A DNA stretch of 41,074 bases. Source: Candidatus Eiseniibacteriota bacterium. GTDB taxonomy: Bacteria > Eisenbacteria > RBG-16-71-46 > JAFGJU01. Positions 1 through 40,177 of the stretch are shown here, one piece after another. Each line of letters starts with the position of its first letter. Within the stretch, counting starts at the first letter, position 1. A model generated the notes under the pieces. It worked only from the letters and a program-made list of their open reading frames with translations, searched no databases and had not been told where the DNA came from. The position numbers were made by a program, and so were the translations under genes. The stretch is from the NCBI GenBank assembly GCA_020349905.1, contig CP070702.1, positions 2,297,221 to 2,338,294 on the forward strand, read 5' to 3'.

Positions 1-87
1 CCGAGAAACACGGTCTTGGCCGCCATCCTGCTCGAAACCGCAGAGCGCCAGCAGTACGAACCGTTCTTCGTTCTGACCCCTGTCTGA
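1..87 (+). CDS. 3' end of an upstream gene (partial, product unknown)
   Basis: Frame 1 is open from the window edge to TGA at 85-87 (..TVLAAILLETAERQQYEPFFVLTPV*). No recognisable motif. Confidence 0.3.
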   Translation, partial: PRNTVLAAILLETAERQQYEPFFVLTPV

Positions 88-418
88 AGTGCGGGCGCTC
101 GAAGCTCACCCAAGTCCACGTCTCTTATGTTGGGACCGGAAAGGGCTGTTTTGAGATTCTCTGCAAACCTAGCGTAGAGTTCGGGATCGTACGAACCTGA
201 CAAATTCATCCTCCAGGATTTCGCGGAAGAACCCGCATGGCACTCGAAGACACGCACACCCCGGCAATGATAGCGTCTCCGGAGTGAAGTAACAATAGAT
301 TTGCTGCAGACACAGCAGCCGAACCATCTCTCACGCGGGCACTGGCGGATGGCATTTCCGCGTTGCCGCTACACCCTGACATAAATGACCTTGCACCACA
401 TCGGCTCTCTCTCGGCGC

Positions 419-1222: not shown

Positions 1223-4060
1223 GTGATACCAATGAGTTCTTGTAGACGAACACCAACAGGACAGCGGTTATCCGGCCTTTTCCTCGTGGTCCTGCTTCTG
1301 GTTGTGTGGCCTGGCGTTTGCGATGCGCAGTGCCCGGAGGGCACTTGTCTCACCGCATGTACTTACGACTACTGGCGGGCTCTTGACAACAGGTGGGTTG
1401 AAGCAGACCTGCCGGTGGTCTACTACATCAATAAAGACGGTGCGTCAGACTGTACGGGCAATGAGTTCCTGACCGTACAGAGGGCGCTTTCGAACTGGGA
1501 GTACCTTAACCAGGCGTTCTGGGCCGCCTGCTACGCGGGAACCACTAGCGCGCGCTCCACGGCTCACAACGTATCCCCTGTGAAGGACGGTTTCAACGTC
1601 GTCTCATGGGAGGATATGGGTAGCGGTACCCCCTTGAAACTCGGCAGGGCGCACTGCTGGTACGACGCGAGCGATCACAACTACGAATGTGACATATCGC
1701 TTAACGACAACGCTGCTGTTTCGTGGTCCGCTCTGAAACAGGATTCCTGTGTTTCCGGGGAATACGACCTGGAGAGCATCTCAACGCACGAATTCGGCCA
1801 TTGGATGTCGTTCGACCATTCGTGCGACTCCCTCGCCACGATGCACTGCTGGACCAAGGCCGGGGACACGTTCAGGCGCAGCCCGAACGAGTGCGACATA
1901 CGCGCAATGAAGTGGTACTACACGCAGATCGCGGGAACCCCAAAGTCTCAACCGGGATGCTGGCCACAGTACATCTCCGGCGGCGTGAACTCGAACCCCG
2001 TGCTCGGCGACATAAATAGAGACGGAATTGAGGATATCGTGGTGGCCGGCGACGACGGGCAGGTTCACGTGTTCAGTGGAAGGGGCAAGGAGCTTACTGG
2101 TTGGCCGCAGTCAACGGGCGGCATGATAGACGGTTCCCCGGCCCTCGGAGACGTGGATGGTGACGGGTGGCTCGAGGTCGTCGTGGGTTCTTATACCGAC
2201 AGTGTCTACGTGTTCAACCCCAACGGCTCCCGGGCTGCGAACTGGCCGCAGGGGACCAACTGGTCTGTCCGCAGCACGCCGGCGATTGCGGATCTGGATC
2301 AAGATGGCGTCACCGACGTAATCTGCGCCTCTACGGATTCTTGCGTCTACGCCTGGAGTGGCACAAGCGGAACGGCGCTGGCGGGATGGCCCGTGAAACT
2401 GGGCGGCAATATGCAGCTCGCGGGACCGGCGCTGGCCGACCTCGACGGGGACGACAGCCTGGAGGTGGTGATTTCAGGGTACGACAACAAGGTCTACGCC
2501 CTGAAACCTCACGGAGCGAACCTCTCTGGGTGGCCGGTCTGGTCGGGGCGCAAAGTCTACGATCGTGTGGCAATCGGAGACGTTGATGGAGACAACGAGT
2601 TTGAGGTTGTCGCAACTGCAATGTATGACAGCGCTTACGCATGGAATGCGAACGGGAGCAGGTGTTCTGGATGGCCGGTCTACATTGCTGCCTCGACTGG
2701 ATACTCGGCTCCCAGCCTGGGTGATATCGACGGCGACAATTCTCCTGAGATCGTGTTTGGCTCCGACAACGACACTCTCTACGCCTTCAACGGCGACGCC
2801 TCGCTCGTCACAGGGTGGCCCAAGTACGTGGACGGGCAGGTACGAGGTTCCGCTCTCATCGTCGATATTGACGGTGATAACGCGTACGAAGTGATAGCGG
2901 CGACGGACAACGGCAAAGTCTATGCGTTCAACGGCAACGGAACCACCGTGAGCGGCTGGCCCATAACGTATGAGCAGTGGTATTACAGAAGCCCGGCCAT
3001 AGGCGAGACCAACGGCGACAACGAGCTCGATCTCGTGGTGGGCAGCACGGGGAACGACAGTCTCTATGCCTACAGCCTCGGCACAATTCTGAATGACTCG
3101 CGCTACGAATGGCGGATGTACGGAAACGACTTCAACCGCACGTCGCGCTACGGATTCGCGCCGGATCCGCCCGAGCCCATACGTTTCTCTGATCCCGTGG
3201 CTGACTTTTCGCACTGGGAGCTGTTCGGAAGCGGGGCGTCGGTGAGCCTCTCCACGATGTCATACAGCCCGCCCACGAGCATGGGAGTTACGGGCAGTCC
3301 CTCCCCCGGCGATTTCGCCAGCGCCTATTCCGAGTTCATAACGGTGGACTTCTCGAGGCCCTACACCATCAAGTTTGCCTTTGCGTACGACAACTTCTTC
3401 TGGTCCACGTGGCTGGTGTTCGGGCACGCGCGCTTCAGGCTCGACAATCCCACTGCTCCTGTCTTGATGGACGTCGCAGGAGATTGGTCCAGTCTGGTCC
3501 CGGTGGGGCCGCCGTTTAACAACTACACACCGCCCATGGCCTACGCGGAGTACGAAATACAGGTGGAGCCGACCACGAGGAACGTTCAGCTTCTGGTGAA
3601 CGGGGTACCGGCCGGGGGGGCCACGTACAGCCCGTCGGTCGTACCCAGCAACCGCATGTGGCTCTCGGACGACGCCGGGCCTTCCGAGTTCCTCACGGGC
3701 TGGTACGACGACTTCGAGGTGCGCGGATATCTGCCGGTTGTGAGCGTGAGGCCCGAGAAATCTCCGGAGCCGCCGCTCCTGAACGCGTTGCACCAGAGCT
3801 ATCCGAACCCCATGAACCCGTCGGCCACCATCAGATACTCAGTCCGGGAGACCGGGAGAGTCTCGATTCGAATCTACGACGTTGCGGGGCGATTGATAAG
3901 GGTGCTGGTTGACGAGGAGAAGGCGGCGTCTCACACGCCGTACTCGGTCGTCTGGAACGGGAAGGACGACTCCGGACGGCGCGTCGCCAGCGGGGTGTAC
4001 TTCTGCCGGATGGAGACGAAGAACTTTGCCTCGGCCAACAAGATCGTCCTCCTGCGCTGA
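1223..4060 (+). CDS. secreted metzincin-like zinc metalloprotease with 8 FG-GAP (beta-propeller) repeats and a T9SS-type C-terminal sorting domain
   Basis: N-terminal signal peptide (LFLVVLLLVVWPGVCDAQ). HEFGHWMSFDH matches HExxHxxxxxH, followed by a Met-turn-like ATMHCW. There are eight repeats of the form GD[IV]DGD..E.V.G..D..VYAFNG, the FG-GAP/integrin-alpha type. The last ~90 aa (SYPNPMNPSATIRYSV...IRIYDVAGRLIRVL...WNGKDDSGRRVASGVYFCRM...KIVLLR) match the type A Por/T9SS CTD pattern (NYPNPFNP..TI.Y..IYD..GR.V..L....G.H...WDG.D..G..V.SGVYFYRL). Confidence 0.85.
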   Translation: MIPMSSCRRTPTGQRLSGLFLVVLLLVVWPGVCDAQCPEGTCLTACTYDYWRALDNRWVEADLPVVYYINKDGASDCTGNEFLTVQRALSNWEYLNQAFWAACYAGTTSARSTAHNVSPVKDGFNVVSWEDMGSGTPLKLGRAHCWYDASDHNYECDISLNDNAAVSWSALKQDSCVSGEYDLESISTHEFGHWMSFDHSCDSLATMHCWTKAGDTFRRSPNECDIRAMKWYYTQIAGTPKSQPGCWPQYISGGVNSNPVLGDINRDGIEDIVVAGDDGQVHVFSGRGKELTGWPQSTGGMIDGSPALGDVDGDGWLEVVVGSYTDSVYVFNPNGSRAANWPQGTNWSVRSTPAIADLDQDGVTDVICASTDSCVYAWSGTSGTALAGWPVKLGGNMQLAGPALADLDGDDSLEVVISGYDNKVYALKPHGANLSGWPVWSGRKVYDRVAIGDVDGDNEFEVVATAMYDSAYAWNANGSRCSGWPVYIAASTGYSAPSLGDIDGDNSPEIVFGSDNDTLYAFNGDASLVTGWPKYVDGQVRGSALIVDIDGDNAYEVIAATDNGKVYAFNGNGTTVSGWPITYEQWYYRSPAIGETNGDNELDLVVGSTGNDSLYAYSLGTILNDSRYEWRMYGNDFNRTSRYGFAPDPPEPIRFSDPVADFSHWELFGSGASVSLSTMSYSPPTSMGVTGSPSPGDFASAYSEFITVDFSRPYTIKFAFAYDNFFWSTWLVFGHARFRLDNPTAPVLMDVAGDWSSLVPVGPPFNNYTPPMAYAEYEIQVEPTTRNVQLLVNGVPAGGATYSPSVVPSNRMWLSDDAGPSEFLTGWYDDFEVRGYLPVVSVRPEKSPEPPLLNALHQSYPNPMNPSATIRYSVRETGRVSIRIYDVAGRLIRVLVDEEKAASHTPYSVVWNGKDDSGRRVASGVYFCRMETKNFASANKIVLLR

Positions 4061-4195
4061 TTTGCGTCTCAGATAGGGTCCAAGTAACCAGAAGCCCGGT
4101 TGCCGAGTCGTTAAGATTCGGCGGCCGGGCTTCTCAGTGAGGGGCTGGGCGGCCCCCCGTGAGGCCTCTGGCATCTAACAGAGGCGGCGGGCACC

Positions 4196-4224
4196 GGCTT
4201 GGTCCTTCCAAGGCCGCGGTTTTT
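4196..4224 (+). terminator. putative intrinsic terminator after the protease gene
   Basis: Stem GGCTTGG / CCAAGGCC with loop TCCTT, followed by GCGG then TTTTT (4220-4224). A longer imperfect hairpin, GAAGCCCGG..CCGGGCTTC at 4091-4134, precedes it. Confidence 0.4.
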
Positions 4225-4349
4225 CCTTTCAACGCACTTGCGCGCCCACATCTTTTGGGCTATCCTGCTGCGCAGTGCTCCCTTTTGCAGGTAAATCCAT
4301 CCCCAGTTCAGTTCCAGGATTGCCCGAGCGGCAAAACCAGGAGGTTTCC

Positions 4350-5585
4350 ATGGCGCGAGCCCTGTTAGCCGTAGTTCTTCTTGCCCTGGTGTTCGGTCCG
4401 GTTGCCCTGGCGGACGAATGCGAGAACTGCCACAAGAAGATAACTCCGGGAATCGTGTCTGACTGGCAACTGAGCAAGCATGGCCAAGGCGGAATCACTT
4501 GCGCGGTCTGTCACGGCCGAGAGCACATGTCCGCTCAGGACGTGGCCAACGTGAGAATCCCCACGCCGGAGACCTGCGCGGGTTGCCACGAAACCCAGGT
4601 AGAGCAGTTTAAGGGCGGAAAACACGCCTTCGCCTGGGCCGCGATGAACGCCATGCCCACGGCTCACTGGCAGCCAATGGCGCTCATGGGCGGCATGAAG
4701 GGTTGCGGGGGCTGCCACAAGATAGGCCTGAAGTCTGAAGAGGAAATTAAGAAGCTCAAGAGCGACATGGGGGGATTCGGCCTAGCCTCGTGCGACGCGT
4801 GTCACACCCGCCATCTCTTCTCTGTGAAAGAGGCGAAACAACCTCAGGCTTGCCAGACTTGCCACATGGGTTTCGACCATCCTCAGTGGGAGATGTACTC
4901 CTCATCCAAGCACGGGGTCAGGTACCTCTTGAAGCAGAGCGGAGTGCTCCCCGGGGACGCGGCTGCGCCGACGTGCCAGACCTGCCACATGCAGGAAGGC
5001 AATCATGCCGTGAGGACCGGTTGGGGTTTTCTGGCCGTACGGCTTCCGATGCCCGAGGATAAGCAGTGGGCCGCCGACAGGGCCACCATCCTCCAGGCCC
5101 TCGGCGTCCTGGACCCGGAGGGCAATCCCACCGGGCGCCTCGACGTTGTGAAGGCCGCGGACGTTGCACGGCTCACTCAGGAAGACTGGCAAATGGAGCG
5201 CGTCAAGATGCTGAAGACCTGTGCAGGATGTCATTCCAAGCACTTCGCGGAGGGCGAGCTGAAGAAGGGCGACGACATGATACTAGAAACGGATCGCCTC
5301 ATGGCGGAGGCCATTCACACCGTGGCTGCCCTCTACAAGGACGGCACGCTTAAGAAGCCTGCCGAATACGCGCACGCGTTCCCTGACCTTCTCACGTTCC
5401 ACGACGCCCCGACTCCGGTCGAACAGAAGCTCTTTGTGATGTTCCTCAAACACAGGATGAGGGCGTTCCAGGGGACGTTCCACGCGAATCCGGACTACGC
5501 CTTGTGGTACGGCTGGAGTGAGATGAGGCAAGACCTGGCAGAGATAAAGTTCGCTGCAGAGGAAATGCGCAGGACTCATAAGTAG
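4350..5585 (+). CDS. octaheme c-type cytochrome (8 CxxCH; candidate hydroxylamine-oxidoreductase/octaheme nitrite reductase-like family), periplasmic
   Basis: AGGAGG at 4338-4343 sits 6 nt before ATG 4350. That start gives the signal peptide MARALLAVVLLALVFGPVALA. The track ORF opens at 4275, but that start has no RBS. There are eight CxxCH motifs: CENCH, CAVCH, CAGCH, CGGCH, CDACH, CQTCH, CQTCH, CAGCH. Seven are clustered in the first ~230 aa and the eighth lies ~100 aa further, as in HAO-family proteins. No CxxCK motif. Confidence 0.85.
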   Translation: MARALLAVVLLALVFGPVALADECENCHKKITPGIVSDWQLSKHGQGGITCAVCHGREHMSAQDVANVRIPTPETCAGCHETQVEQFKGGKHAFAWAAMNAMPTAHWQPMALMGGMKGCGGCHKIGLKSEEEIKKLKSDMGGFGLASCDACHTRHLFSVKEAKQPQACQTCHMGFDHPQWEMYSSSKHGVRYLLKQSGVLPGDAAAPTCQTCHMQEGNHAVRTGWGFLAVRLPMPEDKQWAADRATILQALGVLDPEGNPTGRLDVVKAADVARLTQEDWQMERVKMLKTCAGCHSKHFAEGELKKGDDMILETDRLMAEAIHTVAALYKDGTLKKPAEYAHAFPDLLTFHDAPTPVEQKLFVMFLKHRMRAFQGTFHANPDYALWYGWSEMRQDLAEIKFAAEEMRRTHK

Positions 5586-7192: not shown

Positions 7193-8118
7193 CGAGCCCG
7201 ACGGTGCCCCGAAACAGTATCACCGGAGAGACGCGCTACGCTGGCACGGGAACACTGGGTCCCGGACGCGGGGGACGCTTCGGAGAGAAGTCTCTCTTTC
7301 TCGTCCCGGCCCTGTTCGTTCTCTCTGCCGTCACCATCTACCCCATTCTCTACGTGCTCTGGCTCAGCCTGCACAGGCGCCTTCTCATCTTCGACATTTC
7401 CAAATTCGTCTCCTTCCAGAACTACGGCTTCCTGCTGGCAGACGAAAGATACTGGAACGCTCTCAGGAACACCGTGTATTTCACTGGAGTCTCCGTCGCG
7501 CTTGAACTCGTGCTGGGGATGTCAATCGCACTCCTACTCAACGGGGCTTTCAGGGGCAAGGGCCTGATGCGCTCCATCATTCTCGTGCCCTGGGCGATTC
7601 CCACCGTGGTTTCCGCCAAGATGTGGGAGTGGTTGTACAATCCCGACTTCGGGCTTCTCAACTACCTGCTCGGGGTCAAGATAAACTGGCTCGGCAGTCC
7701 TTTCTGGGCGCTGAACGCCGCTGTCTTTATGGACGTTTGGAAGACGACGCCGTTCGTGGCCATACTTCTGACCGCGGGTCTGCAGAACATCCCCCAGGAG
7801 CTTTATCACGCGGCCAGGGTGGACGGGGCTTCCGGATGGCAGGCGTTCCACCGAGTGACACTGCCCCTGCTCAAGCCCGTGATACTCGTGGTGCTCATCT
7901 TCAGAACTCTGGACGCGTTCAGGGTCTTCGACGCCATCTACGTGCTTACGGGCGGAGGTCCCGCCAATTCCACCGAGACGCTCTCGATATACGCTTACAA
8001 GGTGCTGTTTCAGACCCTGCAGTTCGGCTACGGCTCAACTATCGCGCTGACCGTGTTCCTGTTCGTGGGAGTCATCACCGTTTTCTACGTGAGGTTGCTT
8101 AGAAGGGGAATGGAATGA
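7189..8118 (+). CDS. carbohydrate ABC transporter permease (MalF/UgpA-like)
   Basis: 309 aa, 6 predicted TM segments, permease EAA-type loop region. ATGA overlaps with both neighbours. Confidence 0.9.
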   Translation: MTSPTVPRNSITGETRYAGTGTLGPGRGGRFGEKSLFLVPALFVLSAVTIYPILYVLWLSLHRRLLIFDISKFVSFQNYGFLLADERYWNALRNTVYFTGVSVALELVLGMSIALLLNGAFRGKGLMRSIILVPWAIPTVVSAKMWEWLYNPDFGLLNYLLGVKINWLGSPFWALNAAVFMDVWKTTPFVAILLTAGLQNIPQELYHAARVDGASGWQAFHRVTLPLLKPVILVVLIFRTLDAFRVFDAIYVLTGGGPANSTETLSIYAYKVLFQTLQFGYGSTIALTVFLFVGVITVFYVRLLRRGME

Positions 8119-9249: not shown

Positions 9250-10689
9250 ATGCTTATTCTCTGGATAATCGTTGGCGCTCTTGCAGTCGGTATTGTCCTT
9301 CTCTGGGCCCTGAACTACAGGAAAGTCGGCCCCAACGAAGCCCTCATCATCTCCGGCGGAGCAAGGCGTACGGTCGTGCAGCCCGACGGTACGAAGAGGA
9401 CCGTAGGCTACAGGGTACAGATCGGCGGGGGCACCTTCGTGATGCCCCTGGTCGAGAAAGCTCAGGTCTTGCCCCTGGACATCTTTTCTCTCTCGCTCAA
9501 GACGGAGGGAGTCCTCACCGCCCACGGCGTGGTGGTGACTGCAGAGGCGCAGGGCCAGGTCAGGGTCGCCGACGACGAGCACTCCACGCGGCTTGCCGCC
9601 CAGCAGTTCCTGGCGACCGGAGCAGAGGGGATAAAGTCGGTCGCGAAGGAGGTCCTGGAGGGGCACTTCAGAGCCATGCTGGGCACGATGTCTGTGGAGG
9701 AGACATACCAACAGAGAGAGCGCCTCGCGAGCGAGGTGAAACGCGCCGCGTCAGAGGATTTCGCCCGCATGGGTCTTGCGCTCCTCTCTTGTGCCCTGAA
9801 GGACATCACTGACAAGCAGGGTTACATAGAGGCGCTCGGCGCTCCAAAGATCGCACAGGTGAAGAGAGACGCTGCCGTCGCTCAGGCCGAAACCGAGAAA
9901 GACGCCGCCATCAAGTCGGCCGTGGCGAGGAAGGACGGTGACATCGCGAGGCTCGCGGCCGAAACGGAAGTGGCCCAGGCGTCCAGAGACTTCGAGGCGA
10001 GCCGCGCCGAATTCCAAGCCGCGGTAAACCAGAAGCGAGCGGCGGCCGACATAGCTTACGAGCTGGAGAGAATGAAGGTAACGCAGCAGCTTAGGAAGGA
10101 AGAGGCCGCTGTCAAGATGATAGAGAAGGAGAAGGCCATCGAGCTGGAAGCCAGGGAGATAGAGAGAAGAGAGAAGGAGCTCGAGGCGACGGTCAAGAAG
10201 CCCGCCGAAGCCATGGCGTTTCAGGCCAAGATAGAGGCTGAAGCCGAGGCCTACAGGAACGAGCTGGAGGCCAAGGGTAAGGCCGCCGGCACGAGGCTGC
10301 ACGGGGCCGCAGAGGCAGAGGCGCTGGCTGCAAGAGGAGAGGCAGAGGCCCGGGCCATGCTCAAGAAGGCGGAGTCCTGGTCAAGGTACAATCACGCCGC
10401 GGTCTACGAGACCATCATGCAGACCATGCCGGAGTTGGCGCGCGCGGTTTCGGAACCTCTGTCCAAGGTGGAGAAGATAGTCCTGGTCGGTGAGGGTGCC
10501 GGCGCCTCGAAGATAACCGGACAGGTCGCCAGCGTCGTGGCACAGCTCCCTGCAATCATCGAGTCTATTACAGGAACGGACATAAAGACGTTTCTGGAAG
10601 GCCTTCCTCGCTCCAAGGCGGGAGAGGTACGGGAGAAGGGGTCCCGGAAGACGCCGGAGAGCAGGGACAAGGAACCCCTCCTGGATTGA
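9250..10689 (+). CDS. flotillin-like SPFH/band-7 membrane scaffold protein
   Basis: N-terminal TM helix (LILWIIVGALAVGIVLLWAL). SPFH-type core. A long Ala/Glu-rich coiled coil with EA repeats (KIEAEAEAYRNELEAKGKAAG..AEAEALAARGEAEARA). 479 aa is typical of FloT/YuaG. No NfeD partner gene adjacent. Confidence 0.85.
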   Translation: MLILWIIVGALAVGIVLLWALNYRKVGPNEALIISGGARRTVVQPDGTKRTVGYRVQIGGGTFVMPLVEKAQVLPLDIFSLSLKTEGVLTAHGVVVTAEAQGQVRVADDEHSTRLAAQQFLATGAEGIKSVAKEVLEGHFRAMLGTMSVEETYQQRERLASEVKRAASEDFARMGLALLSCALKDITDKQGYIEALGAPKIAQVKRDAAVAQAETEKDAAIKSAVARKDGDIARLAAETEVAQASRDFEASRAEFQAAVNQKRAAADIAYELERMKVTQQLRKEEAAVKMIEKEKAIELEAREIERREKELEATVKKPAEAMAFQAKIEAEAEAYRNELEAKGKAAGTRLHGAAEAEALAARGEAEARAMLKKAESWSRYNHAAVYETIMQTMPELARAVSEPLSKVEKIVLVGEGAGASKITGQVASVVAQLPAIIESITGTDIKTFLEGLPRSKAGEVREKGSRKTPESRDKEPLLD

Positions 10690-10748: not shown

Positions 10749-10836
10749 CATACGCAGGCGTGGAACATACGTCCATCCTCTGATACGCGTGGACGCGGAG
10801 CATACGTTGATCCTCGAACATAAGTGAACGTGGAGC
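10749..10836 (+). promoter_or_regulatory. cluster of short direct repeats (CATACG x3 plus one GATACG variant; CGTGGA x3) immediately upstream of the aminotransferase-fusion gene
   Basis: CATACG at 10749, 10766 and 10801, plus the variant GATACG at 10782. CGTGGA at 10759, 10788 and 10829. Two imperfect ~36-bp units (10766-10800 and 10801-10838) share CATACGTnnATCCTC....CGTGGA. Candidate operator or activator-site array. Confidence 0.3.
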
Positions 10837-10847
10837 GCCCGTAGCAA

Positions 10848-13196
10848 ATGCTGTCCGAAAGAGTGAACCGCATAGGTCTCTCACCGACTCTCCGCATAAA
10901 TGCGACCGCAAAGGCGATGAGCGCCCAGGGAATAGACGTCATAGACCTGAGCGTCGGCGAGCCTGATTTCCCCTCGCCCATAAACGTCAAGGAAGCGGGC
11001 AAACGGGCCATAGAAGACGACTTCACGAAGTACACCCCCAACGACGGTATCCCCGAGCTCAAAAAGGCCATCATAGAGAAACTCAGGCTGGATAACTCTG
11101 TCCAGTACAGGCCCGAGGAGATACTCGTCTCGCCCGGCGCCAAGTGCAGCCTGTACCACGTCTCCGTGGCACTCTTCGACGAAGGAGAGGACATCATAAT
11201 CCCGGTTCCCTACTGGGTTTCCTATCCGGACCAGGTGAGATTGGCGAAGGCAAATCCCGTCTTCGTGCGCACGAGAGAGGAAAATGGGTTTCGGCTTACC
11301 GCCGAGGACCTGAGGTCGGCCCTCACGTTCAACACCAAGGCGCTGATACTCAACCATCCCTGCAATCCCACCGGTGCCACTTACAGCCGGGAAGATCTCG
11401 AGGAAATCGCGGACGTAGTGGTACGCGAAGGCATCATCGTGATAGCGGACGAGGTCTACGAGAAGCTGGTCTACGACGGGTTCAGGTTCGTGAGCATGGC
11501 CTCCCTGAACGAGAAGATAAAGAAGCAGTGCCTTCTCATAAACGGCGTCTCAAAGGCCTACTCGATGACCGGGTGGCGCATCGGCTACGCGGCGGGGCCT
11601 AAGGAGATAATCGCCGCGATGTCGAAGGTGCAAAGCCACAACACCTCCAACGCCACCTCGATATCGCAGGTGGCAAGCCTGGAGGCGTTGAGGGGTTCTC
11701 AACTGGAGATACCCAGAATGGTCTCAGAGTTTGCGCGCCGCAGGAACTACATGGTCCACAGATTGAGGGCCATTCCGGGCATCTCCTGTTTTGAACCCAA
11801 GGGCGCCTTCTACCTGTTCCCGAACGTTTCGTATTATTTCGACAGGCAATTCAGGGGTGCGCGGGTTCGCAATTCGTACGGGCTCTCCTACTACCTCCTC
11901 AAGGAGGCAAGGGTGGCAGTGGTTCCCGGTGAAGCCTTCGGAGCCGAGGGGTTCATCCGTCTCTCGTACGCCACATCGATGAAGAATCTCGAAGAAGCCG
12001 TGAAACGGATAATCAACGCGCTTTCGATGCTGGAGGCTCCCAGAAAGGCCAGGCCTCTCGCCCTCAACAACGTCGGTACCAAGGTGCGTAACTACGTGGA
12101 AACCGAAGTGGCCGGGGGGCTGGAGCTTAGAAACGCGCTTGTGGCCGAATCCGAGGCTCATCTCAAGTACCACCATTACTTCGAATGGAACGCCAGCATC
12201 TCGGGTGTCGTCATCCAGCTCAGAACCAACAGCCCCCACCTGTCAGACTTCTGGGCCGAGAACTGGTACCCGGCACAGCTGGAGGCCGACATCGAGCCGC
12301 ACGCCATAATATATGCCGTGAAGGACGTGACCGGCAGGGAGTCCAGGGCGTTTTACAACTCCGAGTCGCACACGGGATTCGTGTTCAACACGGCTTTTTA
12401 CGGTCAACTGAGGAGTCTGGCCATCGGCATGCTGGCCGACGTCTCCGAGAAGACCTCCGGTATCCACTCGGTGCACGCCGCGGCCCTGGATGTGGAAGGC
12501 TCGGGTATGCTTCTCATGGCCCCCCCACGAACGGGTAAGTTCACTCACGTGGCAGGCCTCATGAAGTCCGCTGGAGCGCGACTCGTGGCCACGGACTTCG
12601 TCTCTCTCAGATACCTGGACAAGGAGATCCTGGCTGACGCGCCGGAGAGGAAGTTCTACATCAGAACAGACACCGTGGAGGAGCTTCCCCAGCTGGCCGC
12701 ACTGTTCGACAAGAGCAAGCTGGAAAACGTGGTCACCAGGAGGGACGAGTGCAGCCACGAGTTCTGTCCAGACGTTGAGTCGTGTAAGATTGACAGGGGC
12801 GAGGGTTACTGCTACGCGGCCTCTCGCGATTCACGCGCAATGCTCGACCCGTACTGGATGGGGGGCACTTCGGCGCACGTGAAGAGAACTTCTGTGAAAT
12901 GCCTGGTCATTCTGTGCCGCGACTCCGTCTCGCCCGCGGCCAGGAGGCTGGAACCGGAAGAGGCCCTGAGGCGCCTCGAAGCCGCTGACTTTTCAGCCGG
13001 CACGGGGCCACTCAGGGCCAATCCTTTCCTTCATCCTCATCTTCTGATGAGAAGCAGCGACAGACTTCAGTTGCAGCGATTCTTCTTCAGCAGACTTCTT
13101 CAGACCGTCCCCTGCTTCGTCGTCAACACTGGAGCGGGTTCGGTCGAGAATGTCAGCGACAAGATTCAAGAGCTGCTTCACGAAACAGTTGTCTGA
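10848..13196 (+). CDS. fusion protein: class Ib aspartate aminotransferase (PLP) N-terminal domain + HPr-kinase/PEPCK-like P-loop C-terminal domain with a CX4CX5CX8C motif
   Basis: Residues 1-390 carry the AspAT hallmarks LSVGEPDFPSP, NHPCNPTGATYS and SKAYSMTGWRIGY (Schiff-base Lys). The domain ends like AspAT (GFIRLSYATSMKNLEEAVKRIINAL). Residues ~520-640 align with the HprK C-domain: IHSVHAAALDVEGSGMLLMAPPRTGKFTHVAGLMKSAGARLVATDFVSLRY against lHGVlvdvyGvGvLltGeSGiGKSEtaleLvkrGhrLVADDrVev. The Walker A is degenerate (APPRTGKFT). A Cys cluster ECSHEFCPDVESCKIDRGEGYC follows. One uninterrupted 782-codon frame. Confidence 0.8.
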   Translation: MLSERVNRIGLSPTLRINATAKAMSAQGIDVIDLSVGEPDFPSPINVKEAGKRAIEDDFTKYTPNDGIPELKKAIIEKLRLDNSVQYRPEEILVSPGAKCSLYHVSVALFDEGEDIIIPVPYWVSYPDQVRLAKANPVFVRTREENGFRLTAEDLRSALTFNTKALILNHPCNPTGATYSREDLEEIADVVVREGIIVIADEVYEKLVYDGFRFVSMASLNEKIKKQCLLINGVSKAYSMTGWRIGYAAGPKEIIAAMSKVQSHNTSNATSISQVASLEALRGSQLEIPRMVSEFARRRNYMVHRLRAIPGISCFEPKGAFYLFPNVSYYFDRQFRGARVRNSYGLSYYLLKEARVAVVPGEAFGAEGFIRLSYATSMKNLEEAVKRIINALSMLEAPRKARPLALNNVGTKVRNYVETEVAGGLELRNALVAESEAHLKYHHYFEWNASISGVVIQLRTNSPHLSDFWAENWYPAQLEADIEPHAIIYAVKDVTGRESRAFYNSESHTGFVFNTAFYGQLRSLAIGMLADVSEKTSGIHSVHAAALDVEGSGMLLMAPPRTGKFTHVAGLMKSAGARLVATDFVSLRYLDKEILADAPERKFYIRTDTVEELPQLAALFDKSKLENVVTRRDECSHEFCPDVESCKIDRGEGYCYAASRDSRAMLDPYWMGGTSAHVKRTSVKCLVILCRDSVSPAARRLEPEEALRRLEAADFSAGTGPLRANPFLHPHLLMRSSDRLQLQRFFFSRLLQTVPCFVVNTGAGSVENVSDKIQELLHETVV

Positions 13197-26540: not shown

Positions 26541-28976
26541 CTATTCCTCCTCGCCCACAACCACCCTCGCAACGTCTACCACCTTGTCGCCCTTGTCTGG
26601 CTGAATCAATCTCACTCCCTGCGTGTTACGCCCCATTACCGACACGCCCTGGATGGGCAAGCGGATTATGACGCCCTTCGCCGTAATTATCATCAGCTCG
26701 TCGTCGTCTCCCACCTGCTTCACGCTAACCACGGACCCGTTCCTGGGAGTGTTCTTGATAGTAATGATTCCTTTTCCGCCCCTACCGGTGAGACGGTATT
26801 CCGAGATGGGGCTTCTCTTGCCGAATCCGTTCTCGGTGACCACGAGAAGGGTGCCCTCCCCCTTGACCGATATCATCGTTACGACTTCGTCGCCCTTCTC
26901 CAGCGAGACGCCTCTGACTCCTCTGGCCGTGCGCCCCATCGGGCGCACGTTCTTCTCGTGGAACCTGATGGCCTTGCCCAGTTTCTTGGCGAGGATTATG
27001 TCCTGGGTGCCGTCCGTCACCCACGCATCGATGACGCAGTCGCCCGCGTCAAGCCCTATGGCCACGATGCCCGCCTTCCTGGGGTTTGCGTAGGCGGAGA
27101 GAATCGTCTTCTTTATCATACCCTTCCTGGTAGCAATGACCAGGTGATGCTCGTCGTCGAATTCCTTCGTGCGCACGAAAGCCGAAATGCGTTCGTCTCT
27201 CGACATCTGAATCATGTTAACTACTGCTTTCCCGCGAGAGATTCGCCCCGCCTGCGGAATCTCGTGGACCTTGAGCCAGTAGCAGCGTCCCTTGTCGGTG
27301 AGAAAGAGAATGTAGCTGTGCGTGGAAGCGATGAAGAGGTGCTCGATGAAATCTTCCTCCTTCGTGGACACGCCGGTGATGCCCCTGCCCCCGCGCCTCT
27401 GGCGCCTGTACGTGCTGACGGGAAGCCGCTTGATGTAACCGGAGTGAGAAATGGTGATAACCATGTCCTCCTCCGCGATCAGGTCTTCCACGTCGAGCTC
27501 GCCGGCCGCCGCAACTATCTCGGTGCGCCTCTCGTCCGCGTGCTTCTTGCTGAGCTCCAGCACCTCGGTCTTTATTATTCCCATTATCTTGCGAGGGCTG
27601 GCCAGGATGCTTCGGAGCGTCTCTATCAGCTTGATTACGGCGACGTATTCCTCTTCTACCTTCTTCCTTTCCAGGCCCGTGAGGCGCTGCAACCTCATGT
27701 CCAGAATGGCCTGGGCCTGGACCTGAGAGAGCTTAAACTTCTTCATCAGGCCCTCGCGGGCCGCGTCCACGTCCGGGGCCTTTTTGATGAGCGCTATCAC
27801 TGCGTCGATGTTGTCCAGGGCTATCTTGAGCCCCTCCAGAATGTGAGCCCTCTTCTCCGCCTCCGCCAGGTCAAACTCGGTCCTCCTGCGTACGACCTCC
27901 TGGCGGTGCTCGATGAAGAGGTCTATCATCTCACGCAGAGTGAGCACTTTCGGCCGGTTCTTGACCAGCGCCAGCATGTTGGCACCGAAGGTGGTCTGAA
28001 GATACGTGTGCTTGAAGAGCTGGTTCAGAGCAACCCGGGCCGGAGCGTCCTTCTTGAGTTCTATGACGATTCTCATGCCGTCGCGGTCGGACTCGTCCCT
28101 TATGTCCGATATACCGGTTATCCTTCCCTCGCGCACGAGAGCAGCCGTTTTCTCCAGGATTCCCGCCTTGCTGACCTGGTACGGTATCTCCGTCACGACG
28201 ATGGACTCGCGTCCGGTCTTTTCGTTGGTCTCGATGCACGCCCTGGCCCTCATCACGATGAGGCCTCGACCCTTCAGGTAACAGTCCGCGATGCCCTGGC
28301 GGCCCAAGATAATCCCGCCGGTCGGGAAGTCGGGACCGTGCACAACCTTCAGCAGCTTTTCGGGTTCCGTCTCGGGCTCATCTATGACCAGCGCGATGGC
28401 CTCACATATCTCGCCCAGGTTGTGCGGGGGAATATTGGTGGCCATCCCGACCGCGATCCCGGCAGCGCCGTTGACCAGCAGGTTCGGAACCAGGGCCGGT
28501 AACACGTTGGGCTCCTGGCGGGTCTCGTCGTAGTTGGGTCTGAAGTTCACGGTGTTCTTCTCTATATCGCGCAGCATCTCTTCCGCCACCACCGTGAGAC
28601 GAGCCTCAGTGTATCGTTCCGCCGCAGGAGCGTCGCCGTCCACGGAACCGAAATTGCCCTGTCCGTCCACGAGCGCATACCGCATGGAGAAATCCTGGGC
28701 CATCCTCACCATGGTGTCGTAGACGGCCACCGTGCCGTGCGGGTGATAGTTACCCGTGACATCACCGGTTATCTTGGCCGACTTCCGGTAAGGCCTGTCG
28801 TGCATGAGACCTAAGTCTCTCATCGCTACCAGCACCCGCCTGTGCACGGGCTTGAGCCCGTCGCGAACGTCGGGCAGCGCCCTGGACACGATGACGCTCA
28901 TGGAGTAGTCGATGTAGGAGCTCTTCATCGCGTCTTCGATGTATACTGACTTGACTCTCTCCGTACGAGTGCTCAT
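26541..28976 (-). CDS. gyrA: DNA gyrase subunit A
   Basis: [26 protein letters not shown] and the QRDR block [20 protein letters not shown], with the active-site RYTE. 811 aa with a C-terminal beta-pinwheel. Confidence 0.97.
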
Positions 28977-29009: not shown

Positions 29010-30962
<1,953 letters not shown>

Positions 30963-32828: not shown

Positions 32829-34205
32829 TCAAGAAACGGTGACGGCAGGGGAAGAGATGAGAGAGGAGATCCTCTGGACGGAGTCTCTCACGTTCTTGTC
32901 CGTCTCGGCCAATTTCTCTATCTTGTCGCAGGCGTAGAGGACGGTGGTGTGATCCCTGTGTCCGAATCTAGCTCCGATCTCTGAAAGCGAGAAGTCCGTC
33001 ATCCGCCGGCACACGTACATGGCGATCTGCCGCGGCAGCACAATCGAGCTGGTACGCCTCTTTCCCCTGATGGCTTCGACCGGGACCCGGAAAAAGTCCG
33101 CAGTGACTTTCTGGACGTCTTCGATACGCAGGCTCCTCTCCGGTGTCTTTATGAGGTCCTTGAGGACGTCTCTGGCAAAGTCACACGTGATTTCAGAGGG
33201 GGGCACGGAGACAAGAGACGCAAACGCAAGAAGTCTCACCAGGCAGCCCTCGAGGTCGCGGATGTTGGACTTCACGTGGGTGGCTATCAGCAGGGCCACG
33301 TCGTCCGGCAGGCGGACCCGCTCGTCTTCCCCTTTCTTCTGCAGAATAGCGATCCTGGTCTCCAGGTCGGGCGTCTGGATGTCGGTCACAAGGCCTCCGT
33401 TGAAGCGGGAAATGAGCCGTTCTTCGAGCATCGGGATCTCCTTTGGGGGCCTGTCGCTCGTCACGACGACTTGCTTCTGTGCGTCGTAGAGGGAATTGAA
33501 CGTGTGGAAGAACTCTTCCTGGGTGCTCTCCTTTCCGGCCAGAAACTGGACGTCGTCTATGAGGAGAACGTCGGCGCCGCGGTACTTCTTTTTGAACTCC
33601 CAGGTGCGCGTGCGTTGGATGGAGTAGATCATCTCGTTCATGAACTTCTCCGAAGAGACGTAGAAGACCTTGCTGGTTGGCTTCTCGTGTTTGATGAAGT
33701 GGCCGATGGCCTGCATTATGTGGGTCTTCCCGAGGCCCACCCCACCGTATATGAAAAGAGGATTGTAAACAGCCGCAGGACGCTCCGCAGCGGCCATACA
33801 CGCAGCGTGGGTGAGCTCGTTGCCCTTTCCCACGATGAAAGACGAGAAGGTGAAGCGAGGATTGAGCTGGCTCTCGTCCAGAGACGCAGAGAGGCGCCTG
33901 TGCACGAAGGCCCCGGTGCGTTCCGCCTTTCTGGGAGGCTGGTTCTCCTGTTCGGGAGCTATGCAGAAGGAGACGAGAAGTGGGGAGCCGGCCACGTCAG
34001 CCGCGGCGTCCTCTATGAGCCTGAGATAGTGCTGCTCGATCCAGTCCGCGAAGAAGGCGTTAGGCACCTCGAGCAGAAGGCGGCCATCCTCGCAGGGCTT
34101 CGGCCGCAAGGGGTTGAGCCACGTCTGGAAACTCTGTTCGTTTATCTTCTTGCGGAGCAGATTGCACATTCCGCTCCACACCTGGTCAAGGCGGGGGGCT
34201 TCCAC
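32829..34205 (-). CDS. dnaA: chromosomal replication initiator DnaA
   Basis: AAA+ motifs (GGVGLGKTHIMQAIGH, DVLLIDDVQFL). C-terminal DnaA-box-binding helix-turn-helix (QIAMYVCRRMTDFSLSEIGARFGHRDHTTVLYACDKI). GTG start. Confidence 0.95.
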   Translation of the reverse strand: MEAPRLDQVWSGMCNLLRKKINEQSFQTWLNPLRPKPCEDGRLLLEVPNAFFADWIEQHYLRLIEDAAADVAGSPLLVSFCIAPEQENQPPRKAERTGAFVHRRLSASLDESQLNPRFTFSSFIVGKGNELTHAACMAAAERPAAVYNPLFIYGGVGLGKTHIMQAIGHFIKHEKPTSKVFYVSSEKFMNEMIYSIQRTRTWEFKKKYRGADVLLIDDVQFLAGKESTQEEFFHTFNSLYDAQKQVVVTSDRPPKEIPMLEERLISRFNGGLVTDIQTPDLETRIAILQKKGEDERVRLPDDVALLIATHVKSNIRDLEGCLVRLLAFASLVSVPPSEITCDFARDVLKDLIKTPERSLRIEDVQKVTADFFRVPVEAIRGKRRTSSIVLPRQIAMYVCRRMTDFSLSEIGARFGHRDHTTVLYACDKIEKLAETDKNVRDSVQRISSLISSPAVTVS

Positions 34206-37619: not shown

Positions 37620-39419
37620 ATGGACAAAAGAACGCTCCTCGCCCTGGCACTGGCTGCCGCTGCGGTGATGCTCTTTCAGATATTCTACTTCGCTCCGGCA
37701 GAAAGGGCGGCCCGCCTGAAGGCGCAGGAAGAAGAGAGGGCGCGTCTTGCGGCCGCCATCGAAGATTCGCTCGCCGCACTAGCCGCCTCCTCTCCGGAGA
37801 GAGCCCCTCAAACGGCTGCCCCGTCCGTCCCACCGGCCCCGACAGAGAGCTCGGCCCAACAAGTCCCGGTAGAAAGCGCGGCTCTGGGTATGCCGGCACT
37901 CGGCGCCCTCGTAGCTCTGGAGGGTGCCCCGGTCGTGGAAACGGTGGTGGAAACTGACCTCTACGAGGCCACTTTCAGCTCGCGCGGCGGCGTTCTCACC
38001 AGCATGAAACTAAAGAAATTCCAGAGCCTCCACGACGAGCCCGTGAACCTGGTGCGCCAGCCGGTGAGGGACGCGGGACGGGGTGAGATGGGCCTGGTGG
38101 TACGCTCGCAGCGGGGAGAAATAGACCTCTCCTCGGTCGCGTTCACTGTCAGCGACAGCGTGGACGCTGAAACGGGAATGATCCGCAAGCTGAGCTTCCG
38201 TGCAGCTGACCCGGCGTACGGGACAGCGATCGTCAAGACCTTTAGCTTCGCGGAAGACAGCTACGCCATCGGGCTCGACGTGGAGATTCGCGGGATCTCC
38301 TCTCAGGCGGAGAAGCTTGACTATCTTCTGGGTTGGACCGGAGGGGTTTCTCTCACGGAGACGAACCAGAAGGAGGAGATTCGCAACGTAGCTTCCGTCT
38401 CCCTTCTCGGGACAGAAATGATCCAGGACAATCTCAACTCCTTCAAGAAGGAACCGTTCAAGCAGCACACCGGTAACGTCGTGTGGAGCGCCGTCAGAAG
38501 CAGGTACTTCATCGCTGCGTTCGTTCCTCCGGAGGGCGTGGTCTCCGAAGTCGTGAACGCCGGCAGTCCCGAAGAGAGTTTCTCGAGCACGCAGCTTGCG
38601 ATTCCCGTGTCGGTCAACGGACTCACGAGGACGAGCTTCACGCTCTACGTGGGGCCCATAGACCTGTGGAACCTGAAAAAGCTGGAAGTCGGCCTTGAAC
38701 GTACGGTCAACCTGGGCTGGAGTTGGATAAGACCGGTGAGCCAGCTTGTTCTTCAGTTCCTGGTGGCGTGCCACAAAGTGTTTCCGAACTACGGGTCGGT
38801 CATCATTCTGCTCTCGCTGCTCACGAAGATACTCTTCTATCCCCTTACCAGGAGCAGCATGAAGTCGATGCGCGAGATGCAGAAGCTGCAGCCCGAGATT
38901 CAGAAGCTCAAGGAAAAGCTCAAGAAGGAACCCCAGAGGTTGAACAAGGAGGTGATGGGACTTTACAAGAAGCACAAAGTCAACCCGCTTGGGGGATGCC
39001 TTCCGTTGTTGCTCCAGATGCCTGTGTTTATAGCCCTCTACAGCGTACTGATGCATTCCATCGAGATGAGAAGAGCGCACTTCGTGTGGTGGATAAACGA
39101 CCTCTCTTCGCCCGACACGGTAGCGGTGGTGGCCGGATTTGCGATTCACCTTCTGCCGCTTCTCATGGCGGCAAGCATGTTCTGGCAGCAGAAAATGACG
39201 CCCACGGACCCGAGACAGGCCGCCATGATGTACTTCATGCCCATTATCATGCTGGTCTTCTTCTACGGTCTGCCTTCCGGGCTCGTTCTTTACTGGACAG
39301 CCAATAATCTCATGACCATCGCGCAGCAGTATATTCAGAAGAGGGGCGAGAAACCGGAGCCCGCTGCGGAGCCCGTCGCCCCGGAAAAACGCAAGGCATC
39401 GAAGAGTTCTAGAAAATGA
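37620..39419 (+). CDS. yidC: membrane protein insertase YidC
   Basis: N-terminal TM helix, large periplasmic domain, and the conserved C-terminal 5-TM core (PLGGCLPLLLQMPVFIALY...YWTANNLMTIAQQ). 599 aa. Confidence 0.95.
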   Translation: MDKRTLLALALAAAAVMLFQIFYFAPAERAARLKAQEEERARLAAAIEDSLAALAASSPERAPQTAAPSVPPAPTESSAQQVPVESAALGMPALGALVALEGAPVVETVVETDLYEATFSSRGGVLTSMKLKKFQSLHDEPVNLVRQPVRDAGRGEMGLVVRSQRGEIDLSSVAFTVSDSVDAETGMIRKLSFRAADPAYGTAIVKTFSFAEDSYAIGLDVEIRGISSQAEKLDYLLGWTGGVSLTETNQKEEIRNVASVSLLGTEMIQDNLNSFKKEPFKQHTGNVVWSAVRSRYFIAAFVPPEGVVSEVVNAGSPEESFSSTQLAIPVSVNGLTRTSFTLYVGPIDLWNLKKLEVGLERTVNLGWSWIRPVSQLVLQFLVACHKVFPNYGSVIILLSLLTKILFYPLTRSSMKSMREMQKLQPEIQKLKEKLKKEPQRLNKEVMGLYKKHKVNPLGGCLPLLLQMPVFIALYSVLMHSIEMRRAHFVWWINDLSSPDTVAVVAGFAIHLLPLLMAASMFWQQKMTPTDPRQAAMMYFMPIIMLVFFYGLPSGLVLYWTANNLMTIAQQYIQKRGEKPEPAAEPVAPEKRKASKSSRK

Positions 39420-39520
39420 GCCCGCACGGGCCAGTAACATCCACATTTGAATCAGACGTATGTCGGCTACGCCTGACAGAAGAATCTAGAGTTGCCGTCA
39501 AGGAAAGGAAGTGTGACGTC

Positions 39521-40177
39521 ATGGACGAGCATCGCAGGAACTGCATCGAGACAGAAGGTAAGACAGTCGGAGACGCAGTCGGAAACGCGCTCAAGAGATT
39601 GGGTGTGGAAGAGGACGACGTGGAGATAGAGGTGCTCGACGAAGGGAGCCGGGGAGTCTTCAGCATACTCGGTTCCAGGCAGGCCCGCGTTCGCGTGCGG
39701 CTAAAGATAGGCCTCGGACCGTCTTCCGAACCCGCGGAACTGGTCCGGGAGCTCCTCTCAGCGATGGGCTTCTCCGCCGAAGTCGAGAGCAAGGACGTCC
39801 AGGACGCGACGGAGATAACGATCGGTTCCACCGGCGCGGACGGACTTCTCATCGGTAAGAGAGGCGAGACGCTGGAGTGCTTTCAGCACGTGGTGAGCAA
39901 AATGCTGAACCGCAACGCCTCCAGCTGGCGACACGTTATCGTGGACGTGGGCGGTTACAGAAAGCGTAGAGAGGGGCAGCTCATGAAGCTGGCCAGCTCT
40001 CTGGCGGAGCGCGCCAGCTCTACCGGGCAGGAAGTCAGCACCGACCCCCTGAAGGCTTCCGAGAGACGAATCATCCACCTTGCGCTCAAAGACCATCCCG
40101 GAGTCCGTTCGTTTGCGGTCGGCGAGGGACTCGTGAAGCGCGTGGTCATCGGACCGAAGGACACGGGTCGAAGTTAG
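39521..40177 (+). CDS. khpB: Jag/KhpB RNA-binding protein (Jag_N + KH + R3H)
   Basis: Jag_N (VGDAVGNALKRLGVEEDDVEIEVLDEGSRGVFSILGSRQARVRV), KH (GADGLLIGKRGETLECFQHVVSKM) and R3H (ERRIIHLALKDHPGVRSFAVGEG). The track ORF opens at 39416, overlapping the yidC stop. ATG 39521 is preferred. Confidence 0.8.
   Translation: MDEHRRNCIETEGKTVGDAVGNALKRLGVEEDDVEIEVLDEGSRGVFSILGSRQARVRVRLKIGLGPSSEPAELVRELLSAMGFSAEVESKDVQDATEITIGSTGADGLLIGKRGETLECFQHVVSKMLNRNASSWRHVIVDVGGYRKRREGQLMKLASSLAERASSTGQEVSTDPLKASERRIIHLALKDHPGVRSFAVGEGLVKRVVIGPKDTGRS

Follow-up and report, generated by a model that had tools for sequence, protein, structure and literature searches.

What is the second half of an aminotransferase whose reading frame does not stop where the aminotransferase fold ends? 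The question is raised by a gene in a 41,074-nt stretch of a Candidatus Eiseniibacteriota bacterium (assembly GCA_020349905.1, contig CP070702.1, positions 2,297,221-2,338,294, forward strand), referred to here in its full length as the window. The gene encodes an aspartate aminotransferase (AspAT) joined to a module of almost the same length. A first-pass annotation, based on the letters of the sequence, had described a complete class Ib AspAT fused in frame to a P-loop domain of the superfamily that contains HPr kinase/phosphorylase (HprK) and phosphoenolpyruvate carboxykinase (PEPCK). We find that this fusion is genuine, and that the module is a miniaturised whole PEPCK, reaching beyond the P-loop lobe that is common to HprK. 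As for its role, we give an even chance to a protein in which an active AspAT would be combined with a PEPCK-derived, non-catalytic partner or regulatory domain, acting together with a true PEPCK at the node of aspartate, oxaloacetate and phosphoenolpyruvate (PEP).

A single gene conserved across phyla

The fusion open reading frame (ORF) starts with ATG and runs uninterrupted for 782 codons (Table 1). The span proposed by the annotation, 10749-13196, had the correct end; position 10749 lies in an upstream repeat region, and the ATG is found at 10848. The N-terminus M-L-S-E-R-V-N and the start site are kept in the closest relatives. Residues 1-395 constitute the AspAT and are followed, with next to no linker, by the 387 residues of the module (396-782), close to the predicted layout of about 390 plus about 390 residues in one frame.

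In order to survey the fusion, one genome per species was scanned. The module is encoded in 347 species-level genomes, most of them Aminicenantes, with further carriers among Zixibacteria, Eisenbacteria, Gemmatimonadota, Latescibacterota, Calditrichota, Ignavibacteria, TA06, KSB1 and Fischerbacteria. The closest relatives of the window protein come from metagenome-assembled genomes (MAGs) of Candidatus Eisenbacteria, with 74-77% identity. A profile search returned 578 clusters at E <= 1e-3, including the full-length representatives P0078 and P0079. AspAT and module share one ORF in 80/80 genome loci fetched. In the 74 complete homologues the linker measures 0-4 aa, and the whole protein has 762-809 aa, with most copies at 776-787. 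The copies share a mean pairwise identity of 0.68 over AspAT and of 0.58 over the module, which is under strong purifying selection.

These data bear on whether two genes had been joined by a sequencing or assembly frameshift. Many database homologues are fragmentary, and the copy at one locus, L005, is seemingly split, as an artefact would predict. The L005 split, however, is an N-run scaffold gap, P0078 and P0079 are full-length, and the 74 complete fusions are single ORFs of near-constant length from many phyla. Moreover, composition is uniform across the junction (GC 0.57-0.62), and the region around nt 12000-12050, which the annotation had marked for a frameshift check, contains neither a stop nor a change of frame. 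Because the fusion is conserved across genomes, an artefact can be excluded for practical purposes. Recurrent frameshifting or recoding, considered on account of homologues labelled 'split' or 'partial', was likewise rejected, as the genome loci are intact. Many database copies are short-contig fragments, and the N-run in the L005 copy lies at 7990-8001. With so many copies fragmentary, length-based surveys would undercount the fusion.

Source records that give the protein a name list it as 'hypothetical protein' or 'PLP-dependent aminotransferase'. The Pfam copy used has no model that covers the fused module. A literature search for the AspAT-module fusion, for PEPCK-like pseudo-enzymes and for PEPCK or aspartate in Aminicenantes returned nothing relevant. 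The annotation had known of no characterised fusion of an aminotransferase dependent on pyridoxal phosphate with an HprK-type kinase, and none appeared in the literature searched. It had also asked whether the fusion already is a named, widespread family; it is widespread, and it has no name. The component folds are known, and the architecture that combines AspAT with a PEPCK-like module is uncharacterised.

The aspartate aminotransferase half

Concerning the N-terminal half, PF00155 covers residues 30-388 over model positions 2-361 of 361 (E 4e-80). The best PDB matches were 6f35 (E 9e-108), 1j32, 5wmh, 6f77 and 1bjw, with E values ranging from 1e-88 to 1e-107. The motifs SKAYSMTGWR, NPCNPTG, DEVYEKLVY and IRLSYA and the GAK lysine are aligned in these matches; the segment PGAKCS of the window pairs with TGAKQI and NGGKQS of class Ib structures. 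We take the lysine of this G-[AG]-K motif to be the residue that recognises the distal carboxylate in the Thermus AspAT (Lys109). The NCBIfam aspartate transaminase models scored 410-418 bits, under their equivalog cutoffs (418 vs 617). Judged from these matches, fold and class are secure, and scores below the equivalog cutoffs do not settle the exact substrate range. Residues 1-395 correspond to a full-length member of the class Ib AspATs and aspartate-prephenate aminotransferases (Thermus thermophilus 1bjw, rhizobial AatB 6f35, Arabidopsis PAT 5wmh). Unlike these enzymes, the chain of the window protein runs past the last AspAT helix into the PEPCK-like module without a stop.

The module has the fold of a whole PEPCK

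The AlphaFold2 (AF2) model of the module has a pLDDT of 88.4 and a predicted template-modelling score (pTM) of 0.87. When Foldseek was run with this model, the top 35 matches were all ATP-dependent PEPCKs (E about 3e-18, query TM 0.74). Among the structural matches, ATP-PEPCK (1ii2) scored 30.6 over 342 of 387 residues, GTP-PEPCK (9e32) 23.1 over 348, the Euglena complex I subunit NDUEG2 19.3 over 268, and pyrophosphate-dependent PEPCK (8e1u) 17.0 over 358. HprK chains ranked under all three kinds of PEPCK, with 13-14 over about 136-150 residues. Profile-profile alignment with hhalign placed the module on residues about 64-459 of E. coli PckA with a probability of 91.7%; the PckA reference sequence is 100% identical to 1aq2_A. 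A standalone relative of the module, P0061 (387 aa), matches the NCBIfam PEPCK model NF006821 nearly end to end (E 3e-13). Both lobes of the PEPCK fold, the N-terminal domain and the P-loop nucleotide-binding domain, are present in the module.

Sequence models gave a different picture. The window module had no match to PF01293 (gathering score 26.5) and none to an NCBIfam PEPCK model, and an hmmsearch of PDB sequences with the family profile found AspAT tails and weak HprK matches, and no PEPCK chain. As that search missed PEPCK, structure was needed to recognise the kinship. In comparison with ATP-PEPCK (PckA, EC 4.1.1.49, PF01293; E. coli 1aq2, T. cruzi 1ii2), the module is smaller by about 150 residues, roughly 63 being absent from the N-terminus and 80 from the C-terminus. 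It carries an inserted loop with four cysteines (Cys4 loop) in addition to the AspAT fusion, and stays under the threshold of every PEPCK hidden Markov model.

The annotation had identified the module with the C-terminal P-loop domain of HprK, and had suggested that transamination is coupled with the transfer of phosphoryl groups on substrates of the phospho-amino-acid type. Weak matches to HprK_C and HprK-related kinase A do extend over the P-loop (18-22 bits), the HprK structure 1ko7 matches at E 0.04, and the P-loop lobe is shared between HprK and PEPCK. All of the scores, however, fall far under the curated cutoffs (PF07475, 18.4 bits against 33.3; TIGR00679, 22 against 240), and Walker A is degenerate. 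Neither HprK/P (PF07475) nor the HprK-related kinases A and B (TIGR04352, TIGR04355) have the PEPCK N-lobe that is found in the module. In addition, HPr or phosphotransferase system genes occur neither in the window nor among the conserved neighbours of 80 loci. The superfamily assignment thus stands, and the narrower one to HprK does not, its scores being sub-threshold and the module a whole miniature PEPCK. Taking into account that the conserved neighbour of the fusion is a true PEPCK, the context points to oxaloacetate and PEP rather than to phospho-amino acids, for which there is no support. We regard an HprK-like kinase or phosphorylase, whether it were to act on a protein or on a phospho-amino acid, as very improbable.

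A further structural match deserves comparison. NDUEG2, an accessory subunit of Euglena gracilis complex I (PDB 8j9h), is a truncated PEPCK that was judged non-functional (PMC10884005). It is eukaryotic and mitochondrial, belongs to another context, and has neither an AspAT fusion nor a Cys4 loop. It nevertheless provides a structural precedent for a non-functional partner derived from PEPCK.

Active-site residues of the module

The equivalents of the PckA active-site residues are listed in Table 1, with counts over 82 fused modules. The strings that the annotation had quoted are all present: IHSVHAA corresponds to residues 540-546, GSGMLLMAPPRTGKFT contains Walker A, and ARLVATDFVSLRY follows. 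Walker A was rightly called degenerate. Lys564 is retained, G251 is replaced by Arg and the Mg ligand Thr255 by Phe, and A-P-P-R-T-G-K-F-T departs from the canonical kinase-1a motif G-x-x-G-x-G-K-[ST]-[T]. The consensus of the family at this site is G-P-K/P-G-T-K/G-K-T-E, and mean conservation of the P-loop is 0.75 in the module, compared to 0.96 in the neighbouring PEPCK. The Mn2+ ligand set Lys213/His232/Asp269 reads Ser/His/Asp in the window. Across the family H232 is changed to Arg and K288 to Pro, and the H232 position is Gln in the close relative L010. The module stops about 20 residues past the Asn-Thr-Gly motif, so that the final approximately 80 residues of PckA are missing; in the 1aq2 structure this part holds adenine-binding residues.

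Several registers were compared in assigning these residues. A local hhalign register, with Y108/K113/T114 (module numbering) for Y207/K212/K213, was rejected in favour of Y123/R127/S128, because the latter preserves a distance of 25 residues to the equivalent of His232 and fits the predicted order of strand and helix; the chosen register is provisional. The Arg of QLRTN (module Arg64) was considered as PckA Arg65 and dropped. The global hhalign alignment sets QLRTN on E. coli residues about 135-140, and E. coli 64-75 on a K/R-rich linker, module residues 1-12. At Arg663/Arg333, local hhalign pairs DSRAMLDP with NTRVSYP.

We considered the possibility of a true bifunctional enzyme, in which the module, as an active mini-PEPCK or as an oxaloacetate decarboxylase, would turn the oxaloacetate from the AspAT half directly into PEP or pyruvate, perhaps with an unusual phosphoryl donor or metal arrangement. 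The presence of the whole PEPCK fold and the strong purifying selection agree with this, as does the retention in the window of Tyr518, Arg522, His543, Lys564, Asp583, Arg606 and Arg663. Standalone archaeal relatives with fully canonical motifs, together with a nucleoside diphosphate kinase (NDK) gene beside some loci that hints at nucleotide use, can also be counted in its favour. On the other hand, K213 has become Ser and G251 Arg, and the T255 position holds Phe in the window protein and S, A and I in its three closest relatives. The Walker Lys varies (R, G) among the fused modules and is V or absent in a sister clade fused to PEPCK, the C-terminal part of PckA is missing, and a complete PEPCK is co-encoded, beside which a second one would be redundant. 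On balance we consider a bifunctional enzyme unlikely.

Conserved N-lobe and Cys4 loop

The best-conserved part of the module is its N-lobe (0.87). Most residues of QLRTNSPHLSDFWAENWYP, its most conserved stretch, are at least 95% conserved in the 82 fusions, and the N-lobe motif QLRTN..H..DFW.ENWYP is invariant across phyla. ENV and LDPxW are further invariant positions of the fused modules, in addition to the Glu-Arg-Lys (ERK) triplet listed in Table 1.

The CX4CX5CX8C cluster noticed by the annotation is present as C635-x4-C640-x5-C646-x8-C655. Its cysteines are kept in 80, 79, 79 and 81 of the 82 fusions, and an L/I-D-R-G sequence within the loop is near-invariant. The loop is specific to the AspAT-fused clade, and is absent from the standalone proteins P0061 and P0064 and from PEPCK-fused forms. 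Over the loop the pLDDT of the model dips to 63-77. The loop is probably a metal site, with Zn or Fe-S.

These features would also suit a stand-alone sensor, which would bind PEP, oxaloacetate, a nucleotide or some other anionic metabolite in a metal-free cationic cleft, or sense redox state through the Cys4 loop, and regulate AspAT without contacting PEPCK. Basic residues have indeed been gained in the cleft (Arg at H232 in most relatives, the invariant Arg-Lys of ERK, and P-loops rich in Lys such as GPKGTKKT), the Cys4 loop is nearly invariant in the AspAT-fused clade and restricted to it, and some loci have no PEPCK nearby. A sensor would, however, leave the recurrent adjacency to PEPCK and the PEPCK-fused sister clade unexplained. 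Moreover, the spacing C-x4-C-x5-C-x8-C is not known to be a signature of Fe-S or Zn binding. We therefore hold a sensor independent of PEPCK to be rather improbable.

Relatives fused to PEPCK and standing alone

A second type of fusion links the same family to PEPCK itself. In P0093 (899 aa) a module stands N-terminal to a complete NF006821-type PEPCK (PF01293, E 2e-48). This module has neither the Cys loop nor ENV, carries Arg at H232, and has its Walker motif replaced by GSSENDIAT. An identical P0093 assembly was found in 3 samples, in an archaeal-looking context (loci L088-L090). P0224 and P0225 (49-52% identical) cross the same module-PEPCK junction, and P0227 is from a Jordarchaeaceae (Asgard) MAG. 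Among the modules of P0093 and P0224-P0227, the position of the Walker Lys is occupied by K, K, R or V or is missing altogether, and Arg takes the place of H232. The PEPCK-fused forms share both the change of H232 to Arg and the decay of the P-loop with the AspAT-fused modules.

In a neighbour-joining tree with 200 bootstraps, the AspAT-fused modules were monophyletic in 199/200 replicates and the PEPCK-fused ones in 196/200. Together they formed an exclusive clade (179/200), nested among standalone archaeal proteins. The PEPCK-fused and standalone archaeal proteins (PF07475 + PF27840; P0061, P0252) belong to the same family as the window module, with 32-41% identity to it. They differ in having neither Cys4 loop nor AspAT, and none has been characterised.

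Standalone mini-PEPCK-like proteins of 370-390 aa (P0061, P0252, P0275 and about 60 more; loci L001-L004) are abundant in Bathyarchaeia and Methanosarcinales. Their motif set is fully canonical (IHSIHG, APTGTGKST, HSDDW, ENV, SRA-LDP, NTG). Judging from these motifs they may be active enzymes, either miniature PEPCKs or a new kind of kinase. The gene of P0061 adjoins BioY and BirA in convergent orientation. In P0144 (754 aa; compare P0114, 556 aa), an intein (PF14890) is located right behind the Walker GTGKS of a standalone PEPCK-like protein.

Flotillin and PEPCK genes near the fusion

A flotillin gene lies directly 5' of the fusion, on the same strand, in 66/69 loci with enough flank, in many phyla and with a median gap of 28 nt. 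This spacing in the relatives looks operonic. A full-size PEPCK of the NF006821 type (about 615 aa) is present within the flanks in 39/53 loci with adequate flank. Over all 83 fusion loci, PEPCK follows directly downstream in 41; in a further 8 it lies upstream of flotillin in divergent orientation, and in 1 it is upstream in the same orientation. NDK adjoins the fusion in several loci.

In the window, the opposite strand carries the start of a PEPCK gene at a distance of about 10.6 kb upstream of the fusion. The gene is cut by the left edge, and about 9 kb of other genes separate it from flotillin. PEPCK is divergent from flotillin and fusion in an Eisenbacteria relative (L052), and the window PEPCK is probably the remnant of an ancestral layout of this kind. 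It is likely to be the functional partner gene of the fusion.

The neighbouring PEPCKs have Y207, K212, K213, H232, K254, S/T255, D269, K288 and R333 in 50/50 cases. NF006821 (PRK09344.1-3) PEPCK, which is co-located in most loci, is the closest type of PEPCK by sequence. The module is nevertheless only about 17% identical to it, and the catalytic residues of the neighbour are all invariant. These NF006821-type enzymes have Gln at E. coli D268 and Ala at G251, are about 75 residues longer than PckA, and apparently form a distinct, uncharacterised PEPCK subfamily. A SIS-domain protein, a PlsC-like acyltransferase, RNase PH, LpxK and an epimerase were considered as neighbours conserved across phyla and rejected, as they reflect synteny specific to Aminicenantes.

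A possible role for the fusion

Under the reading to which we gave an even chance, the AspAT half would make or use oxaloacetate, and the PEPCK-like half would carry out no canonical Mg/Mn-NTP phosphoryl transfer of its own. The metal and nucleotide half of the module has decayed or been remodelled, with the PEPCK fold and some substrate-side residues retained and the Cys4 loop gained. The module may dock AspAT on the full-size PEPCK encoded nearby, or sense oxaloacetate, PEP or a nucleotide, or do both. In this way aspartate, oxaloacetate and PEP could be interconverted in a coupled or jointly regulated manner, perhaps with flotillin as the scaffold. A partnership between module and PEPCK is suggested by Rosetta-stone logic, because the sister clade is fused to PEPCK. 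The annotation had offered, as an alternative to its kinase, a pseudokinase or regulatory module. This alternative comes near to what the comparative data favour.

A more far-reaching form of the proposal is tentative, and we think it more doubtful than the general reading. Here the PEPCK-derived pseudo-enzyme would be an adaptor that tethers AspAT to the real PEPCK, with a flotillin membrane scaffold as a possible base. Oxaloacetate would then be channelled within a metabolon conserved across many phyla, with a parallel version in Asgard-like archaea in which the module is fused to PEPCK itself.

A number of observations weigh against a non-catalytic domain that works with PEPCK. The invariant ERK, ENV and QLRTN positions, the Cys4 loop and the strong conservation of the module would also fit a new enzymatic activity. 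The window protein is more PckA-like than most of its relatives (His543, Lys564, Asp583, Arg606, Arg663), which makes residual catalysis possible. Within the oxaloacetate/PEP-binding set, Tyr207 is invariant (Tyr518), whereas Arg333, present in the window as Arg663, is found in 25/82 relatives, and a match for Arg65 is not established. The residue equivalences, which are tentative in the N-lobe, were derived by profile alignment with the help of predicted secondary structure rather than by structural superposition, and the neighbour-joining tree was built from divergent sequences, in which long-branch attraction is possible. In the AF2 model of the full-length protein (pTM 0.51) the interdomain geometry is not resolved. 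Concerning the neighbourhood, 14/53 adequately flanked loci have no PEPCK within the flanks, and linkage to flotillin is tighter than that to PEPCK, with no known functional connection to account for flotillin. Finally, the fold, the fusion, the pattern of conservation, the neighbouring genes and the sister fusion are observed, whereas the role of adaptor or regulator is one that we infer from comparative genomics.

Upstream spacer and other genes of the window

The annotation had described a dense array of CATACG and CGTGGA repeats upstream of the gene and suggested dedicated regulation. CATACG is indeed locally enriched, with 3 of the window's 13 copies within 58 nt upstream of the fusion. 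CGTGGA, in contrast, abounds in the window as a whole (71 copies, compared to 27 expected from dinucleotide-preserving shuffles), an excess for which codon usage or composition is a possible cause. The 158-nt spacer had no Rfam match and no sigma-70-like site in a promoter scan, and its sequence is not shared by the three closest relatives (L008-L010). With this lack of conservation, and a median gap to flotillin of a few tens of nucleotides in relatives, dedicated regulation by the repeats is not borne out. They may be a lineage-specific regulatory site, for which their presence is the only support.

The window adjoins the chromosomal origin, with gyrA (26541-28976, minus strand), gyrB (29010-30947, minus), dnaA (32829-34205, minus), yidC (37620-39419, plus) and jag/KhpB (39416-40177, plus). 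At the other end, positions 1223-5585 (plus) hold two genes. The first encodes an FG-GAP repeat protein of 945 aa, which has a matrixin-like region and a C-terminal sorting domain of the type IX secretion system, and the second a multi-haem cytochrome. The sorting domain fits an ancestry in the FCB (Fibrobacteres-Chlorobi-Bacteroidetes) group.

Table 1. Features of the fusion gene and its surroundings in the window, with counts of residues over fused modules
Feature	Position (nt)	Strand	Basis or observation
N-terminus of full-size NF006821-type PEPCK, off left window edge	1..209	-	hmmsearch; parallels the PEPCK N-terminus at L005
Flotillin (Band_7/SPFH + Flot), upstream partner	9250..10689	+	Pfam
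Spacer repeats: CATACG, three copies; GAACATACGT-like 10-mer, three; CGTGGA, three	10749..10834	+	repeat counts
Complete fusion gene, AspAT then PEPCK-like module	10848..13196	+	single ORF, 782 aa + stop codon
Class Ib AspAT domain, residues 1-395	10848..12032	+	PF00155, NCBIfam and PDB matches
Schiff-base Lys236 in SKAYSMTGWR	11553-11555	+	aligned to SKAYAMTGWR of 6f35
Miniaturised PEPCK-fold module, residues 396-782, on E. coli PckA about 64-459	12033..13193	+	profile-profile alignment, Foldseek
QLRTNSPHLSDFWAENWYP, residues 457-475, N-lobe	12216..12272	+	most conserved stretch of module; mean column conservation 0.88 (P-loop 0.75)
Tyr518 at PckA Y207			Tyr invariant in 82
Arg522 at PckA K212			Arg in 81/82
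Ser at PckA K213 (Mn ligand)			Ser in 74/82
His543 at PckA H232 (Mn ligand)	12474..12476	+	Arg 68, His 10 of 82
Degenerate Walker A APPRTGKFT, residues 558-566	12519..12545	+	aligned to E. coli GLSGTGKTT 248-256
Arg at PckA G251			Gly in 78/82
Lys564 at PckA K254 (Walker Lys)			K 72, R 9, G 1 of 82
Phe at PckA T255 (Mg ligand)			T 56, S 10 of 82
Kinase-2 Thr582-Asp583 at PckA D268-D269	12591..12596	+	profile alignments
Asp583 at PckA D269 (Mn ligand)			Asp 77, Glu 5 of 82
Glu600-Arg601-Lys602 (ERK), at PckA E-G-G before Y286/K288	12645..12653	+	invariant 82/82
Arg606 at PckA K288			Pro 49, Arg 14, Lys 7 of 82
Cys4 loop C635-x4-C640-x5-C646-K-I-D-R-G-x3-C655	12750..12812	+	inserted between the strands of ENV and of the R333 equivalent
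Arg663 at PckA R333 (substrate-binding)	12834..12836	+	R 25, H 25, Y 16, F 7 of 82
Asn760-Thr-Gly at PckA LVNTGW motif	13125..13133	+	Asn in 80/82

Implications

Oxaloacetate is unstable, and is a branch point of amino-acid catabolism, gluconeogenesis and anaplerosis. If our proposal is correct, a conserved physical link between AspAT and PEPCK would show how carbon is routed in widespread, uncultured, protein-degrading sediment bacteria. The module would at the same time offer a clear prokaryotic example of an enzyme paralogue reused as a partner or regulatory domain. In the more far-reaching form of the proposal it would be the first prokaryotic PEPCK pseudo-enzyme, and flotillin would have an unexpected metabolic client in bacteria. 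The near-universal presence of flotillin in front of the fusion suggests that membrane microdomains of bacteria have an unrecognised role in central metabolism. The standalone archaeal relatives, with their catalytic motifs intact, are candidates for a miniature PEPCK or a new kinase. In hundreds of genomes the fusion is labelled as an aminotransferase, a name that overlooks half of the protein.

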